From the NCBI GenBank assembly GCA_017549445.1, contig JAFYUU010000001.1, positions 16,332 through 80,331 of the forward strand: a stretch of DNA of 64,000 nt, read 5' to 3'. Origin of the DNA: Alphaproteobacteria bacterium. GTDB taxonomy: Bacteria > Pseudomonadota > Alphaproteobacteria > Rs-D84. The notes under the pieces were generated by a model, which made no database searches, was not told where the DNA came from, and worked only from the letters and a program-made list of their open reading frames with translations. A program made the translations under genes and the position numbers. Position 1 is the first letter of the stretch; every line of letters starts with the position of its first letter. Shown in pieces: positions 2,512 to 8,110 of this stretch.

Positions 2512-2695
2512 GTGAACTGCAACACCCGTCTTTTACACCGGCCTGCACATCGACAGTCCGTGCCAGAATAGCACACCGACATAAAAAATCAAGTGGAAAT
2601 ATTATAATATTTTTATTTTTTACTTGCAAGACCTTTTTGATACAACAGGATTACTTTCCGCAAATCAATAGTTTTTTGTTTTTGCAAATTTTTTC

Positions 2696-2725
2696 TTGCA
2701 TGACATGCCATTTTTTGTCTACAAT
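2696..2725 (+). promoter_or_regulatory. Sigma-70-like promoter for the virB8-B9-B10 operon
   Basis: TTGCAT (2696-2701), 18-nt spacer, TACAAT (2720-2725), ending 25 nt upstream of the GTG start at 2751. Confidence 0.35.
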
Positions 2726-2750
2726 CGTTTTAATCAAGGGGGAGAAATCC

Positions 2751-3434
2751 GTGCAAAATCGTGTAAAACCGCCAATTTTATTATCTCGACTGTTGGGACT
2801 GGTGCTGTGTGCAACACTGGTGGTGGCGATTGCCATGCTGACCGTTTTGGACGGAATGTTTCCATTGAACAAGGCACAGGTATTCTTTTTAACCACCAGA
2901 CCACGTGACACAATCGAGGTTAAACTGACCGACCTGCCCCCGACAGATGAAAATTTGGTTAAATACAAACGGGCTTTTATTCGTGAATACATCAAGGCAC
3001 GCAATGAAATTGTGCCTGACGCTGATAAAATGCGGGCAAAATGGAACAATAATGCGGGGGCATTGGTCAGAAACTGGTCCAGCGATGCAGTATTCGAGGA
3101 TTTTAGCAACACACGTATGTGGAACGCAATTATGTATGATGGGGCGGGATTTGATTGGTCTTGTCCGGTGGGATTTGAACGGGGGGCAATCGTCGCCAGA
3201 AGCAGTGATGATGTGTATGCTGTAAAATTCCGCTATTTTTGTGCAAATAATGATGGACAGATTGCACCAAAAGATTATACAATCGTATTAAAGTTAGATA
3301 CTGATGATACAAGTGTGACCAAGTGGGCGGACAGGATAAACAACCCATTGGGGATTCGGGTCACAGAATACAAGGTAGAATCTGTGGACGGTGATAAAAG
3401 TGTCACAACAGATCCACTGGAATTTGATTTGTAA
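2751..3434 (+). CDS. virB8: Type IV secretion system protein VirB8-like
   Basis: N-terminal TM helix (LLSRLLGLVLCATLVVAIAMLTVL) followed by a periplasmic domain with VirB8-type motifs (KRAFIREYIKARNEI; NNPLGIRVTEYKVE near the C-terminus). GTG 2751 with an AGGGGGAG RBS is preferred over the ORF-track ATG at 2637. Confidence 0.75.
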   Translation: MQNRVKPPILLSRLLGLVLCATLVVAIAMLTVLDGMFPLNKAQVFFLTTRPRDTIEVKLTDLPPTDENLVKYKRAFIREYIKARNEIVPDADKMRAKWNNNAGALVRNWSSDAVFEDFSNTRMWNAIMYDGAGFDWSCPVGFERGAIVARSSDDVYAVKFRYFCANNDGQIAPKDYTIVLKLDTDDTSVTKWADRINNPLGIRVTEYKVESVDGDKSVTTDPLEFDL

Positions 3435-3461: not shown

Positions 3462-4988
3462 ATGACATTCGTGAAAAATTGGAAGTTAAACGTATCGGCA
3501 ATTTGCCTGGGGGTGATGTTGGCAATGCCTGCGGTGGCAATTGAATACGGTGTGCAGACCGCATGGGACAACCCAAATGCCAATATGGCAAGTGGCAGTT
3601 TGAAACCTGGCTATGCCCAACTGACCTGGTCGGCGGGTTCTGTTTTACCAATCAAATTACGCAACGGTATGGCGACAATGGTCAATCTGCCAAATGGTGA
3701 ACAGATTGCAGATATTGTCGCAGGAAATGAATCTTTGTTCGATATTTCTGCACAACAGGGCGATCGCACAATGTTTTTGTCGCCTAAACCAGATAATATG
3801 GGGTCGGATACAAATCTGATTGTGACGGGGAAGTCCGGAAACAGATATATCTTTTATCTGCGTAGCGAACCATCTAATTCCAGTGAAATTACATATTCCC
3901 AGGTTGATGTTATGCTGGACGGAAATGGCAAATTGCCAGTTATAGCGGGAGCAACGTCTGGCGGTGGGATGAATTCGGTCTTTACAAAAACAGCAAAAAC
4001 AACTGCGTCAAATACAGTTGGGGTGGATGGCGAAGATTATGGTTGGATTAAATCGATGAAAATCGATCCGTCTGAATTTAGATTTGACTTGGACATTTTC
4101 GTTCCAAACCCAGACGACTATGTTATCGCACCAGAACGTGTGTGGCGTGACAGAATCTTTACATATATTGACTTTGGCGACAAGGTTATTGCAATGACAC
4201 AAAGACCGGTTGTGTCGCTGATGGTTGAAGGTGGCGAATCGCCCGTGGGATTCCGCACAGATGGCGAAGATGGTCGTCTGTTGATTGTCGAAGCGGTTGG
4301 CGATATGGTTTTAAGAAGTGGCCAAAGAATTGTATGCATCAAGAAACGTGAAAAACCATTCTTGATTGCTGATACTGCGTCTGTTATGGCCCTGGCCGAG
4401 GCGAACGTTGCACAAAGTATGTTGTCAGGACAATCGTTGAACAATATTGCATACACGGCAGATATGGCCGCAATGAGTGCAGGCACTTCTTACACAGGGA
4501 CCCCAATGTTTATGGGCAATACTGCGACCGTCAATCCAATGACGGGGGCTGGAACATATATGCCCGCAGGATACATGGCCCCAGCCGTTGGTGGTGGAAA
4601 CAAAGCAATGACAATGTTGCCAATTCAACGTGATACCGCCGGTTCTTATTTGCCACAGTCAAATATTCCACTGATTACCAGCAATCAGAGTGGCGTGGCG
4701 GTTGAATTGAAATCCGACCCATCGGTCAAGGCATTAAATGATTACTGGACAGGGTTGATGGCGAAATTTAGTGGCGAAAGTGGCCAAGGAATACTGACCA
4801 AATATAAAGATATGGTGTTCTTTGCCGTGGACGAAGAAGGTGTGGGCGACCTGGGCGAAGGGGCATCGACCGCACGTCTGTATCGTCTGCGTATTGGGCC
4901 ATTTGCAGATATCACAACAGCACAGGAACTGTGTGATCAATTGTTGAAATTCAGCGGTGCCAGTTGCAGTGTCGTCAGAATTCAATAA
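3462..4988 (+). CDS. virB9: Type IV secretion system protein VirB9-like with C-terminal SPOR domain
   Basis: Signal peptide (...VMLAMPAVA). VirB9/CagX N-domain (LPIKLRNGMATMVNLPNGEQIADIVAGNESLFDIS...TNLIVTGKSGNRYIFYLRSE) and C-domain (APERVWRDRIFTYIDFGDK...RLLIVEAVGDMVLRSGQRIVCIKK). The last ~100 aa look like SPOR (ARLYRLRIGPFADITTAQELCDQLLKFSGASCSVVRIQ). Confidence 0.8.
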   Translation: MTFVKNWKLNVSAICLGVMLAMPAVAIEYGVQTAWDNPNANMASGSLKPGYAQLTWSAGSVLPIKLRNGMATMVNLPNGEQIADIVAGNESLFDISAQQGDRTMFLSPKPDNMGSDTNLIVTGKSGNRYIFYLRSEPSNSSEITYSQVDVMLDGNGKLPVIAGATSGGGMNSVFTKTAKTTASNTVGVDGEDYGWIKSMKIDPSEFRFDLDIFVPNPDDYVIAPERVWRDRIFTYIDFGDKVIAMTQRPVVSLMVEGGESPVGFRTDGEDGRLLIVEAVGDMVLRSGQRIVCIKKREKPFLIADTASVMALAEANVAQSMLSGQSLNNIAYTADMAAMSAGTSYTGTPMFMGNTATVNPMTGAGTYMPAGYMAPAVGGGNKAMTMLPIQRDTAGSYLPQSNIPLITSNQSGVAVELKSDPSVKALNDYWTGLMAKFSGESGQGILTKYKDMVFFAVDEEGVGDLGEGASTARLYRLRIGPFADITTAQELCDQLLKFSGASCSVVRIQ

Positions 4989-5024: not shown

Positions 5025-7478
5025 GTGGTGGACAACAGTATGAGCAAAATTAAACAGCAATTCAAAACGTGGCAGGCAAATACCCCTAAACGGGTGCAGT
5101 GGTTGTTGGTTGCGGTGGCGGGTGTCGTAATACTGATTTTATTGACACTGATTTTTATGCGTAAGGAAGAAAAAGTTATAGAAGAACGTGAAGCAATTCC
5201 CGCAGAACTGAAATTTAATCCAGGCGACAGTATAAACTGGCCCGATGTGTTGGTGGGCGAAACCAAAGAGCAGACAATAAAAATTTCTGCAAATGTCCCT
5301 GTTAAAATCGCCAAGGTGAATTTAACACAGGATATAAAAGGACTGACCGTCAAACAGACGTGTGCCAGCATCGCAGAAATCAGTGCAGAAACTGCATGCA
5401 CGGTGCGTCTGATTTATACCCCAACCGCACAGATGACACCGGTGGTGGTGCCGCTGATGTTGGATTGGTATCCGATTGGGGATTCGCCAGACATGAATAA
5501 AATGGCAAAAATTACAGTTGTGCTGGGGGCCCAAATGCCCGAGGTTCAGCAACCTGCCCCGGTGCCGGTTAAACCTGTTGTCGATACACCAACAGAAGAA
5601 GACAACACCCCCGTGTTTTACGATGAAGAACCAGAAGACGAGGAAGAATATTACAGACAAGTCCCCGTTAAAAAAACACCCGCAATCGCACAAGAAAATC
5701 CATTTGACGAATACGAACAAGACGAGGAGGATATACCACAAATCCCGTCCGAGGCGTGTTCGGATTTTGCAATGCCTGGATACGGGACATCGGGTCGGCA
5801 GACGGGTTGGATTAAACCTGTTGATGGTGCCTATTATTTTTATCCTTTCTCGGATACAGAGTGTAAAAATCCAACGGGGGTCTATAACCCAGATAACGGA
5901 ATTATCACTGACATCAAAAGCAAAGGTAAAAAAATTGGAACAGATGCAGAACATGTCGGCTTTGTCGGTATGTTGGGCGGGGCGATTCCAAAACTGTCTA
6001 ACCCAGTAAAATCCGCAGGTGTCAATCGGGCAAAGCAATTGACCACACAGGAATTGGGAACAATGGCAAGTTCCAGTGCTGGGGGCGGTATGGCACGTAT
6101 GGGGCAAGACGGGTTCGAGGCAATGAATGGCCTGATCAAAGAAGAAATTGATAAGGAAATTTATCTGGGGTCAGCAAGCGATAATTCACGTGTTTTGGCA
6201 TCAAAACAATACGACAGACAATTTATTCTGCGTCAGTATAAACCAATTCCTGCGACAATCGTGTCAGAAATTCGTGCCGATCCCGAAGCATTGAGAAACA
6301 ATCGCCTGCCTGTGCGTGCAACGGTTGATAGAAACGTATATTCAGACGATGGACGCAACGTGATTATACCAACGGGAACGTTGCTGTTGGGGTATATCTC
6401 GGGCGAATTGCCAGGGCCATACACATCAATCGGACGTATGGATATTAACTGGTATCAGTTTATACTGCCAAATGGGGTAGAGTTTAATTTCAAACAAGGA
6501 ACTGCACCATTTTCAGGCGATGCACAGGGTCGTTCTGGTATCCCAGGTTATGGTAGCACCGACTATATGGAGCAATTCTTTATGCCGATGCTGACCGCAA
6601 TTGTGCCGGCGGCGGTGAATCTGATTGCACCGGTCAGTGATGCGTTCGTAAATCAAATTGACCTGGATAACAATACAGTGGTGCAAAGCGGAACCGTGCG
6701 TTCGTCAGAAATGGCAAAGAACGAGATTATTACCGCATGGAATCAGGTTGCACAAAAACTGATTGTCGATATGATGGATAACACAACACCACCATTTTCA
6801 ATCGCAGCAGGAACACGTATAACCGTTTATTCGCCAGTGGATTTGGTCGCATCTTGTGGCGAGGAAGGAAGTGGTAAAAAATGTTCGTTAGGGTATGCGG
6901 ACAGTAATCGTTGGGACGAATGGCACAACAATGCAGATCTGAAGCAAGACGGTTCGTGGGTTGGTCAGGTTCGCAGTTTCAATTTGGCAAAATATTGCGT
7001 CAAGGACAATAACGGCAGGTGGGATATACAGCCAAATAGCGAAACACAGATAGCAAAAGAAGGATACGATTACAGATCTGTGTTATTCTATTGCCAATCA
7101 TTGAACTATCAGGCGATAAACAATGCCAAGCAAGATGCGGTCTATCAAAATCAACAGCAACAGTTCGCATCGCAGGAATATAATACCCAATCTACTGCCG
7201 GGGTGTCGGGGGCACAGACGGGTATTGTTGGCAATAAAACTTATAACGAACAAGTTTTGGGATTGACGTATAACGAAGATGGATCAATCGAAAATCCGTT
7301 TGAAGACAAAAAAGATGAAGTCACGGAAACGGTCGAGGTCGTCACATGCGATGGCGGTATAATGCCAGATGCAAATGGATGCTGTCCGGGGGAAACATAT
7401 ACCGATATGGGCGATCAAGGATTTAACTGTTGTCCAGATGCAGGTGGCGATTGTTTCCCACCAATCATAAATAACTGA
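5025..7478 (+). CDS. virB10: Type IV secretion system protein VirB10/TrbI-like, extended
   Basis: N-terminal TM helix, then a Pro-rich linker (PEVQQPAPVPVKPVVDTP). TrbI/VirB10 domain at aa ~395-607 (LPVRATVDRNVYSDDGRNVIIPTGTLLLGYISG...RMDINWYQFILPNGVEF...DAQGRSGIPGYGSTDY...AAGTRITVYSPVDL). A 210-aa C-terminal extension follows. The start may be ATG 5040, preceded by an AGGTGG RBS. Confidence 0.8.
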   Translation: MVDNSMSKIKQQFKTWQANTPKRVQWLLVAVAGVVILILLTLIFMRKEEKVIEEREAIPAELKFNPGDSINWPDVLVGETKEQTIKISANVPVKIAKVNLTQDIKGLTVKQTCASIAEISAETACTVRLIYTPTAQMTPVVVPLMLDWYPIGDSPDMNKMAKITVVLGAQMPEVQQPAPVPVKPVVDTPTEEDNTPVFYDEEPEDEEEYYRQVPVKKTPAIAQENPFDEYEQDEEDIPQIPSEACSDFAMPGYGTSGRQTGWIKPVDGAYYFYPFSDTECKNPTGVYNPDNGIITDIKSKGKKIGTDAEHVGFVGMLGGAIPKLSNPVKSAGVNRAKQLTTQELGTMASSSAGGGMARMGQDGFEAMNGLIKEEIDKEIYLGSASDNSRVLASKQYDRQFILRQYKPIPATIVSEIRADPEALRNNRLPVRATVDRNVYSDDGRNVIIPTGTLLLGYISGELPGPYTSIGRMDINWYQFILPNGVEFNFKQGTAPFSGDAQGRSGIPGYGSTDYMEQFFMPMLTAIVPAAVNLIAPVSDAFVNQIDLDNNTVVQSGTVRSSEMAKNEIITAWNQVAQKLIVDMMDNTTPPFSIAAGTRITVYSPVDLVASCGEEGSGKKCSLGYADSNRWDEWHNNADLKQDGSWVGQVRSFNLAKYCVKDNNGRWDIQPNSETQIAKEGYDYRSVLFYCQSLNYQAINNAKQDAVYQNQQQQFASQEYNTQSTAGVSGAQTGIVGNKTYNEQVLGLTYNEDGSIENPFEDKKDEVTETVEVVTCDGGIMPDANGCCPGETYTDMGDQGFNCCPDAGGDCFPPIINN

Positions 7479-7759: not shown

Positions 7760-8110
7760 ATGAACAATACACACGCAATATCTTTACACGCAGAAAAATT
7801 CCAAAGTGCAGAACAGATTTGGTTCTGGTTTCTGTATTCACGTGCAATTCGCAACAGTTTCGTGCGACAAAACAATAACACCAGACGAAAGATATGTGAA
7901 CTGGTTGATGTAGAAACACTGATTACTAAACTGTATCTGGCAGGCCGATTAAACGATGAACAACTGGTCGTGATGAAAAAATATGGTGATAAAAGACGTG
8001 CACCACATCAATATATCTGGACAGAAAACAGTGACGCAGACAAATGGAAACGGGCGATGGAGGTGCTGGAATCAGCATGCAAGGAACGTGGTTGGATAGA
8101 AGAACAATAA
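7760..8110 (+). CDS. Hypothetical small protein (116 aa), possible HTH-like region
   Basis: Strong RBS (AAAGGAGAGAAGA ATG). No antisense gene competes for the locus. The segment RLNDEQLVVMKKYGDKRRAP weakly resembles sigma-70 region-4 / LuxR-type helices. No firm family assigned. Confidence 0.6.
   Translation: MNNTHAISLHAEKFQSAEQIWFWFLYSRAIRNSFVRQNNNTRRKICELVDVETLITKLYLAGRLNDEQLVVMKKYGDKRRAPHQYIWTENSDADKWKRAMEVLESACKERGWIEEQ

Follow-up and report, generated by a model that had tools for sequence, protein, structure and literature searches.

A VirB10 protein of Candidatus Enterousia with an Ig-like domain and a family-specific six-cysteine C-terminal module, a candidate periplasmic docking module

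The 64,000-nucleotide stretch of DNA analysed here (the window) is part of contig JAFYUU010000001.1 of the alphaproteobacterial assembly GCA_017549445.1 and carries a virB10 gene at 5040..7478 on the forward strand, encoding 812 amino acids (aa) plus stop. Its product is a genuine VirB10 channel subunit from a type IV secretion system (T4SS), about double the usual length. The best explanation of its architecture, to which we give about an even chance, is a decorated VirB10 with a tethered periplasmic docking module that acts as a lineage-specific C-terminal address and not as a tip specific to the T4SS. On this account VirB10 serves as channel subunit and scaffold in a T4SS of Candidatus Enterousia that is encoded on the chromosome and inherited vertically, and it has three additions. 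The first is an ASH/PapD-like Ig domain just outside the inner membrane, old and common to other alphaproteobacterial VirB10s, and the second a small two-Cys beta module before the barrel, found throughout the order. The third, a 210-aa tail belonging to one family only, consists of a disulfide loop, a folded subdomain, a tether of ~50 residues and a 45-residue six-Cys module.

The gene was recognised from the translation of its open reading frame (ORF), matches to TrbI/VirB10 hidden Markov models and full-length homologues. The frame is stop-free through to 7478 and offers an alternative GTG start at 5025, which would give 817 aa. Since the ATG at 5040 is preceded by the Shine-Dalgarno-like AGGTGG 8-14 nt upstream and the homologues start with the same MSKIKQQ, we number the protein from this ATG; an earlier note on this DNA counted from the GTG, and its positions are therefore higher by 5. 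TrbI (PF03743) matched aa 398-601 with 65.1 bits against a cut-off of 35, covering profile positions 3-185 of 188. The NCBIfam model T4SS_VirB10 (NF038091) covered aa 387-602 with 62.5 bits, below its equivalog cut-off of 220; a score this far below the cut-off marks a divergent member, and the protein was therefore filed by its Pfam domain and gene context. In the PDB, the barrel was matched by ComB10 (2bhv) and by a CagY fragment (8cb2).

The long reading frame is not a product of sequencing. At E <= 0.001, 905 proteins matched VirB10, and the best 120 of the 905 are all full length (778-851 aa) and cover the whole query at 52-59% identity; one homologue is 96% identical. Genomes of the same genus encode the entire architecture without stops, and it is also uninterrupted on 17 named GenBank contigs of metagenome-assembled genomes (MAGs), among them a circular 958-kb chromosome. 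That a frameshift or assembly error joined a separate downstream ORF to virB10, which the earlier note had raised as grounds for abandoning its reading, has next to no chance of being true: the best 120 homologues come from many samples and, like the other Enterousia genomes and the 17 MAG contigs, show the same unbroken architecture. The artefact was rejected on this conservation across independent assemblies.

The protein is built from alternating conserved and variable parts, all encoded on the forward strand. A cytoplasmic N-tail (aa 1-20) and a single predicted transmembrane (TM) helix (aa 21-40, WLLVAVAGVVILILLTLIFM) were read from the sequence (5040..5171; entropy 0.74 bits). The ASH/PapD-like Ig beta-sandwich follows at aa 54-168 (5199..5543), with an invariant Cys108/Cys120 pair, and was assigned by AlphaFold2, Foldseek and conservation. 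Linker 1 at aa 169-235 (5544..5744) is Pro/Glu-rich and variable, with entropy of 1.9 bits, a predicted local distance difference test score (pLDDT) below 50 and a length of 51-85 aa among homologues, whose linker 1 region gives TonB_N (polyproline) and PARP low-complexity matches. The two-Cys beta module, termed M, lies at aa 236-335 (5745..6044; structured core 243-303) and has invariant Cys240 and Cys275. A second variable linker at aa 336-390 (6045..6209; entropy 1.88 bits, 19% gaps, low pLDDT) leads to the TrbI/VirB10 beta-barrel at aa 391-602 (6210..6845), which has no Cys, has entropy of 0.39 bits and is supported by PF03743, NF038091 and the ComB10 and CagY matches. The short N-tail, the one hydrophobic segment at aa 21-40 and the Pro/Glu-rich spacer at aa 169-235 are those of a predicted bitopic protein.

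We compared this layout with canonical type IVA VirB10 proteins (A. tumefaciens VirB10, pKM101 TraF, R388 TrwE, X. citri VirB10 and H. pylori ComB10; PF03743). Shared with these are the cytoplasmic N-tail, one TM helix, a Pro-rich spacer, a TrbI barrel with two antenna helices, and a gene placed after virB8 and virB9. In contrast to them, the Enterousia protein is ~2 times as long, with the Ig-like and two-Cys modules before the barrel and 210 aa after it. All 14 Cys (108, 120, 240, 275, 606, 615, 653, 685, 770, 781, 782, 797, 798 and 805) are invariant across the alignment of 120 homologues; they are split 2+2+2+2+6 over five add-on modules, and none falls in the N-tail, the TM helix or the TrbI barrel.

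The TrbI profiles end at aa 601-602 and the ComB10 alignment, limited to aa 425-596, ends at aa 596, and therefore 210 residues (603-812) lie beyond the canonical domain. This bears out the 210-aa Cys-rich extension past TrbI that had been read from the sequence. The possibility that the tail is part of the TrbI domain was rejected because profiles and ComB10 both end at aa 596-602 and the tails of other Rs-D84 families differ. Four parts can be told apart. Part a, aa 603-644 (6846..6971), is a Cys606-Cys615 loop with a hypervariable stretch (pLDDT <50; entropy 1.67 bits; 41-58 aa among homologues), in which both Cys are invariant. Part b, aa 645-712 (6972..7175), is a small folded subdomain with Cys653 and Cys685 (AlphaFold2 pLDDT 77-89; invariant columns) and includes a long helix at aa 678-712, YDYRSVLFYCQSLNYQAINNAKQ. 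A flexible tether rich in Gln, Asn and Gly follows at aa 713-765 (7176..7334; pLDDT 38-67 and the alignment) and contains the conserved motif LGLTYxEDGxIxNPF. The chain closes with the six-Cys module at aa 766-810 (7335..7469; pLDDT 73-85, beta-hairpin), defined by the consensus of 140 copies. Seven Cys had been counted in the last 43 residues; there are in fact six (770, 781, 782, 797, 798 and 805), all in the 41-residue string quoted for them. The AlphaFold2 model of the tail has a mean pLDDT of 65, with moderate to good values for the subdomain and the end-module and a flexible segment between them. Foldseek returned nothing significant for the tail (best match E 3.7) and no fold match for part b, and neither the tail nor the module gave anything relevant in Pfam and NCBIfam at E <= 10. 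It is evident from this protein that a VirB10 can bear a large folded addition at its C-terminus.

The end-module reads C-x-DG-x2-P-D/N-x2-G-CC-x-GE-x-Y/F-T/K-D-M/L-G-x3-G-F-x-CC-P-x2-GGD-C-F/Y-PP across the 140 copies, with three conserved aromatics and several conserved acidics, including an invariant Glu and a conserved Asp beside Cys. Its profile found no Pfam or NCBIfam match and 0 PDB sequence-profile matches. As judged from its sequence, the module is a compact, undescribed domain of 45 residues with a very clear signature. Granulin-type CC-ladder mini-domains have the same C...CC...CC...C spacing and, likewise, a predicted beta-hairpin; granulin C (2jyu) came second among the Foldseek matches of the tail (probability 0.12 over 23 columns), which is not significant and serves as a lead only. 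Assignment of the module to granulins or knottins was rejected, as the best Foldseek E-value was 3.7 and PDB, Pfam and NCBIfam gave no match.

A search of 1.84 billion representative proteins with the tail profile gave only 254 matches. Twenty-four of these have E <= 1e-30 and span most or all of the tail, and most of the other listed matches cover positions ~165-216 alone, which is the module. The module is present in 148 of the best 150 matches, 15 of which carry two or three copies, and it ends no more than 6 residues from the C-terminus in 144 of the 148 carriers. The carriers fall into four classes, namely VirB10, a bitopic family of ~700 aa, proteins of 60-250 aa with an N-terminal hydrophobic segment, and a trypsin-like protease. 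Named members of their clusters are all labelled 'hypothetical protein' and come from alphaproteobacterial MAGs.

The ~700-aa carriers have a cytoplasmic coiled coil, one TM helix, a Pro/Glu-rich periplasmic stretch of ~220 aa and the six-Cys end-module. By analogy they look like periplasm-spanning proteins of the TolA/TonB type, in which a head at the C-terminus is joined through a long Pro-rich spacer to an anchor in the inner membrane. The genome of the window encodes one of 699 aa outside the window (C11:24081-26177, reverse strand), adjoining a GcrA-like gene; it also has a Pro-rich region before the TM helix and ~25 representative homologues of 635-852 aa. Between gyrB and lolD/lolE the same genome has a gene (C15:144090-144833, reverse strand) for a 248-aa protein with a signal peptide and two six-Cys modules in tandem; its equivalent in relatives is an adjacent gene pair of ~210 aa and ~80 aa. 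Many small carriers, among them proteins of 70-100 aa, have a hydrophobic N-segment of 17-24 residues and the module only 10-25 residues further on. This segment has more the look of a membrane anchor than of a signal peptide that is cleaved off; should it be an uncleaved anchor, the module would have to work near the inner membrane, in the periplasm. The protease, P0249, is a 436-aa signal-peptide protein of the trypsin family (PF00089, 31.8 bits against 20.6) that ends in the module; it comes from a metagenome, outside this genome. In genome G016, three genes between lolD and ftsK (contig C53, L042:3090-5018) encode proteins of 344, 212 and 77 aa. The 344-aa protein combines a TM helix and helical Cys-pair repeats with an Ig-like domain that is paralogous to the one of VirB10, shares its Cys pair and gives a weak ASH match, and the 212-aa and 77-aa proteins encoded after it are module proteins. 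The Ig-like domain is therefore also reused outside VirB10. At the loci examined, the module genes were unlinked to vir genes; their neighbours are gyrB/lolDE, gcrA or lolDE/ftsK.

A strictly C-terminal position on several unrelated exported or envelope proteins of one lineage is known, by analogy, from C-terminal sorting domains (the C-terminal domain of type IX secretion, PEP-CTERM and GlyGly-CTERM). Unlike these, to which it has no sequence or fold relation, the six-Cys module also sits on inner-membrane-anchored proteins.

The distribution of the parts shows which are old and which are recent. VirB10 genes from five other Rs-D84 families served as the comparison set. Their products all retain TrbI, the two-Cys M module and, together with its Cys pair, the Ig-like domain, and have only 15-140 aa after TrbI, acidic or of low complexity, without the six-Cys module. 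The module profile matched in all 107 of 107 Enterousia genomes, with 2-4 copies each, and in 14 of 14 genomes of nine sister genera in the same family (f1), compared with 0 of the 29 genomes sampled in other Rs-D84 families. As the module is confined to family f1 among the Rs-D84 families, the Cys-rich tail is therefore a family-level innovation. The expectation that the tail would prove lineage-specific was thus confirmed: it occurs only in Enterousia and its sister genera and is absent from the five other families.

We asked where the tail sits. The earlier note had reasoned that the C-terminal region of VirB10 forms the pore, so that the module would be surface-exposed as an adhesin or host-contact tip. 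The outer-membrane pore of VirB10 consists, however, of two antenna helices within the barrel domain, with a loop outside (PMC6536674), and is thus made by internal helices and not by the C-terminus. In our protein the antenna helices lie putatively at ~aa 503-578, after which the chain would come back to form the final barrel strands. A C-terminal Strep-tag on TraF/VirB10 was used to purify the core complex of pKM101, in a report that leaves the side of the C-terminus unstated (PMC3630358); the canonical VirB10 C-terminus is therefore accessible to solvent once the core is assembled, and it tolerates addition. Since the module is found on inner-membrane-anchored and on Sec-exported soluble proteins, a general role in the periplasm or envelope is indicated rather than one as a T4SS tip. 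The adhesin reading starts from a mistaken premise on which part of VirB10 makes the pore, and it was not supported.

The tail or its end-module might nevertheless reach the surface through or beside the VirB10 pore and bind a partner or host cell, which we consider unlikely. The proposal that the organism is an obligate symbiont or parasite in need of contact with other cells (PMC12306168) would fit this, as would the presence of the T4SS throughout the order and of the module on the secreted protease. Compared with the 96%-identical homologue, VirB10 shows 40 differences, of which 16 are in linker 1, 6 in linker 2 and 12 at aa 608-634, against 1 in TrbI and 0 in the M module. Such a hot spot at aa 608-634 is what an exposed recognition loop would be expected to show between close relatives; however, the variable stretch is also predicted to be disordered and relaxed constraint explains the variation equally well, so that the hot spot could stem from diversifying pressure acting on a loop that is exposed or simply from a loop that is disordered. 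The three aromatics and several acidics of the module would also fit exposure, such a make-up being found in small glycan-binding domains. Against exposure stands, besides the internal origin of the pore, its width of 3-4.5 nm, which 14 folded subdomains with their modules would have to cross or bypass. The module also ends inner-membrane-anchored proteins with short linkers and a bitopic protein that has no known route across the outer membrane, and Pfam, NCBIfam, PDB and Foldseek gave no similarity to any known adhesin.

The genes beside virB10 bear on a second alternative. The virB8-virB9-virB10 operon is placed between nusG-rplK-rplA and yidC. It starts with a virB8-like gene (2637..3434, forward strand; PF04335 VirB8, 45.5 bits), followed by virB9 (3462..4988, forward strand; PF03524 CagX, 75 bits) directly upstream of virB10. 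The encoded VirB9/CagX, at 508 aa, is nearly 2 times the usual length, and its C-terminal tail is SPOR-like (PF05036 at aa 471-506, 22.9 bits against a cut-off of 21). In the Enterousia lineage the T4SS core is decorated throughout, with the SPOR-like tail on VirB9 and the Ig-like domain and M module on VirB10. VirB7 was not recognised beside the operon in profile scans of the neighbourhood, and a 116-aa ORF just 3' of virB10 (7760-8110, forward strand) had no Pfam or NCBIfam match. The tail subdomain and module could pack on VirB9 or a neighbouring VirB10, or replace a VirB7-type lipoprotein, and so stabilise the 14-mer, with the other carriers using the module for unrelated oligomerisation. 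A decorated core and an unrecognised VirB7 agree with such a brace, as does the existence of small module-only proteins that could co-assemble with the ring; in Agrobacterium, moreover, VirB7 and VirB9 are disulfide-linked. We nonetheless judge it improbable. The flexible tether of ~50 residues (pLDDT 38-67) separates the module from the folded part, unlike a rigid brace, five other Rs-D84 families build the same T4SS without the tail, and the module genes lie near lolDE/ftsK or gcrA, unlinked to vir genes.

The state of the Cys residues raises a third alternative, in which the six invariant Cys, with their two CC pairs, coordinate a metal or sense thiol redox in place of forming three disulfides. 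DsbB was absent from all 31 genomes searched, which rules it out as the oxidant of the Cys pairs, and the lineage lives anaerobically by fermentation and lacks respiratory chains (PMC12306168). The invariant Glu and conserved Asp beside Cys would also suit a metal site. However, the lineage conserves a DsbA-like protein of the Thioredoxin_4 family, with CGYC as its active site and a membrane segment at the N-terminus (21 of 21 high-quality Rs-D84 genomes; in the genome of the window at C6:11878-12843, forward strand, outside the window). The even Cys count of each module and the compact hairpin predicted by AlphaFold2 are typical of disulfide-stabilised mini-domains, and Pfam, NCBIfam and PDB profile searches gave no similarity to known metal-binding families. 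Taken together, this makes a metal-binding or redox module very unlikely.

We return to the tethered periplasmic docking module. Here the tail would stay in the periplasm and its Cys pairs would be oxidised by the DsbA-like enzyme of the lineage. The 14 tethered end-modules of the VirB10 ring would then dock the outer-membrane core to a target in the envelope. Candidates for this target are peptidoglycan or another glycan, a protein, and further copies of the module itself. The other carriers, namely the TolA/TonB-like bitopic protein, the small exported proteins and the protease, would share it. Several points weigh against this. The function of the module (partner, localisation and disulfides) rests on inference throughout, and the tail model is of moderate confidence overall. 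The N-segments of the small carriers might be cleaved signal peptides, in which case the argument for a place near the inner membrane would fall. Part a of the tail is among the fastest-evolving stretches of the protein, which would also fit external diversifying pressure. Finally, with no DsbB and an anaerobic life, disulfides are not assured, and the Cys could bind metal instead. A further step, which we regard as possible and put forward tentatively, is that the module represents a new family of domains and serves as an address shared by the C-termini of its carriers, bringing together the T4SS outer-membrane core, the periplasm-spanning TolA/TonB-like protein, the small exported proteins and the protease at one site of the envelope. 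Candidates for the site are glycans, such as peptidoglycan, and the zone where a partner cell is contacted.

The additions before the barrel were examined in an AlphaFold2 model built on an 18-sequence alignment of VirB10 aa 44-345. Residues 54-168 formed eight strands with pLDDT 92-97. The top Foldseek match in the PDB was the ASH/PapD-like domain of CEP192 (6fvi; E 6e-6, TM(target) 0.59), and the other leading matches were SPD-2, hydin, MSP and PapD (E 6e-6 to 1e-3), with matches of the ASH/PapD/MSP type interspersed with other Ig-like folds. By sequence, Pfam ASH (PF15780) was sub-threshold at 19 bits against a gathering score of 27, as was NCBIfam choice-of-anchor D (E 6e-4), and a sub-threshold ASH-type match at E <= 0.1 was found in 4 of the 18 VirB10 homologues. 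PDB sequence-profile searches with the domain gave 0 matches, and the support for the fold comes from structure comparison only. The AlphaFold2 confidence and Foldseek thus bear out the fold proposed from the sequence, an Ig-like beta-sandwich of the ASH/PapD type that lies after the TM helix and before the Pro/acidic linker. The likeness to the ASH, PapD-like and MSP domains of CEP192, hydin, MSP and PapD is at the level of the fold, with weak sequence matches; in contrast to the known domains, the one in VirB10 is part of a T4SS subunit and carries an invariant pair of Cys that is its own.

The core of the M module (aa 243-303) was modelled as six short strands and a helix with pLDDT 84-89. 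With an entropy of 0.74 bits, the module equals the TM region in conservation, and it has no Pfam or NCBIfam match. By eye, its hairpin motifs (G-x-IG-W/Y and DG-x-I/V-x-D-x2-G-x2-IG) resemble the repeat unit in the beta-flower region of giant VirB10s, a likeness that is not statistically significant. A short beta-flower/DUF3659 hairpin repeat was accordingly not accepted for M: phmmer gave only E 0.5-0.8 and Pfam no Bflower match, and it stays an unproven lead.

Beyond the order, the Ig-like profile matched in 29 of 401 alphaproteobacterial genomes. Most of these matches fall in ORFs whose lengths equal those of the giant VirB10 ORFs in other small-genome lineages (1,349-2,681 aa); typical alphaproteobacterial VirB10 ORFs in the 401 genomes sampled have 360-600 aa. 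The Ig-like domain is therefore older than the tail and ancestral to a wider group of alphaproteobacterial VirB10s. Its placement in the giant proteins was confirmed directly for one of them, P0286, which runs from a TM helix through an ASH-like Ig domain with the same Cys pair, a Bflower/DUF3659 repeat region of ~1,600 aa and TrbI to an acidic tail. These giant 'beta-flower' VirB10s, from uncultured Alphaproteobacteria, resemble the Enterousia protein in the order of TM helix, Ig domain with Cys pair, beta-rich region, TrbI and tail (108-150 aa in theirs). They differ in having ~1,600 aa of hairpin repeats where the Enterousia VirB10 has a single module of ~65 aa, and in tails that are acidic, of low complexity and without the Cys module. 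The giant genes are at L045-L048 (genomes G436, G367, G323 and G137; Bflower being PF21784/PF21785), and databases label their products at most 'DUF3659 domain-containing protein'. CagY of H. pylori, another expanded VirB10, likewise combines the barrel with large lineage-specific additions, but there these are N-terminal repeat regions and the barrel comes last, whereas the Enterousia protein has a structured Cys-rich tail after the barrel. Within Rs-D84, the VirB10s of family f3 (L031-L034, L036 and L038) have their TrbI match split by an insertion of ~20-40 residues, for example RSDGTYQALDTF. This insertion falls at the inferred antenna region, and the part expected to face outside would therefore itself be remodelled in f3.

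The assembly that contains the window has 763 kb and is 64% complete; genome size is 0.7-1.1 Mb in high-quality Rs-D84 relatives. The same virB10 occurs on named GenBank contigs that belong to Candidatus Enterousia MAGs and 'uncultured Alphaproteobacteria' from the guts of chickens, ruminants, horses and humans. Enterousia (GTDB order Rs-D84) has been described as a group of reduced-genome anaerobes that probably depend on other cells, in a description that does not mention secretion systems (PMC12306168), and a full-text literature search found no paper naming both Rs-D84 and type IV secretion. VirB4 was present in 29 of 29 and VirD4 in 21 of 21 high-quality Rs-D84 genomes; neither was found in the window's own 64%-complete assembly. 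As both are universal in the high-quality genomes, the virB8-virB9-virB10 operon belongs to a complete, vertically inherited T4SS.

Rs-D84 and Enterousia are widespread, uncultured inhabitants of the gut with genomes of less than 1 Mb. Because their T4SS is universal and the additions to its core are conserved, it is the obvious candidate for the interface with a partner cell, and the decorated VirB10 is an example of the remodelling that T4SS cores undergo when genomes are reduced. As a marker, the six-Cys module picks out a few envelope proteins that probably work as a group, and it provides a handle for metaproteomics, structure work and binding assays. If it is indeed a common address, it would represent a sorting or docking system of a simple kind, with its origin in just one family of Alphaproteobacteria with tiny genomes.

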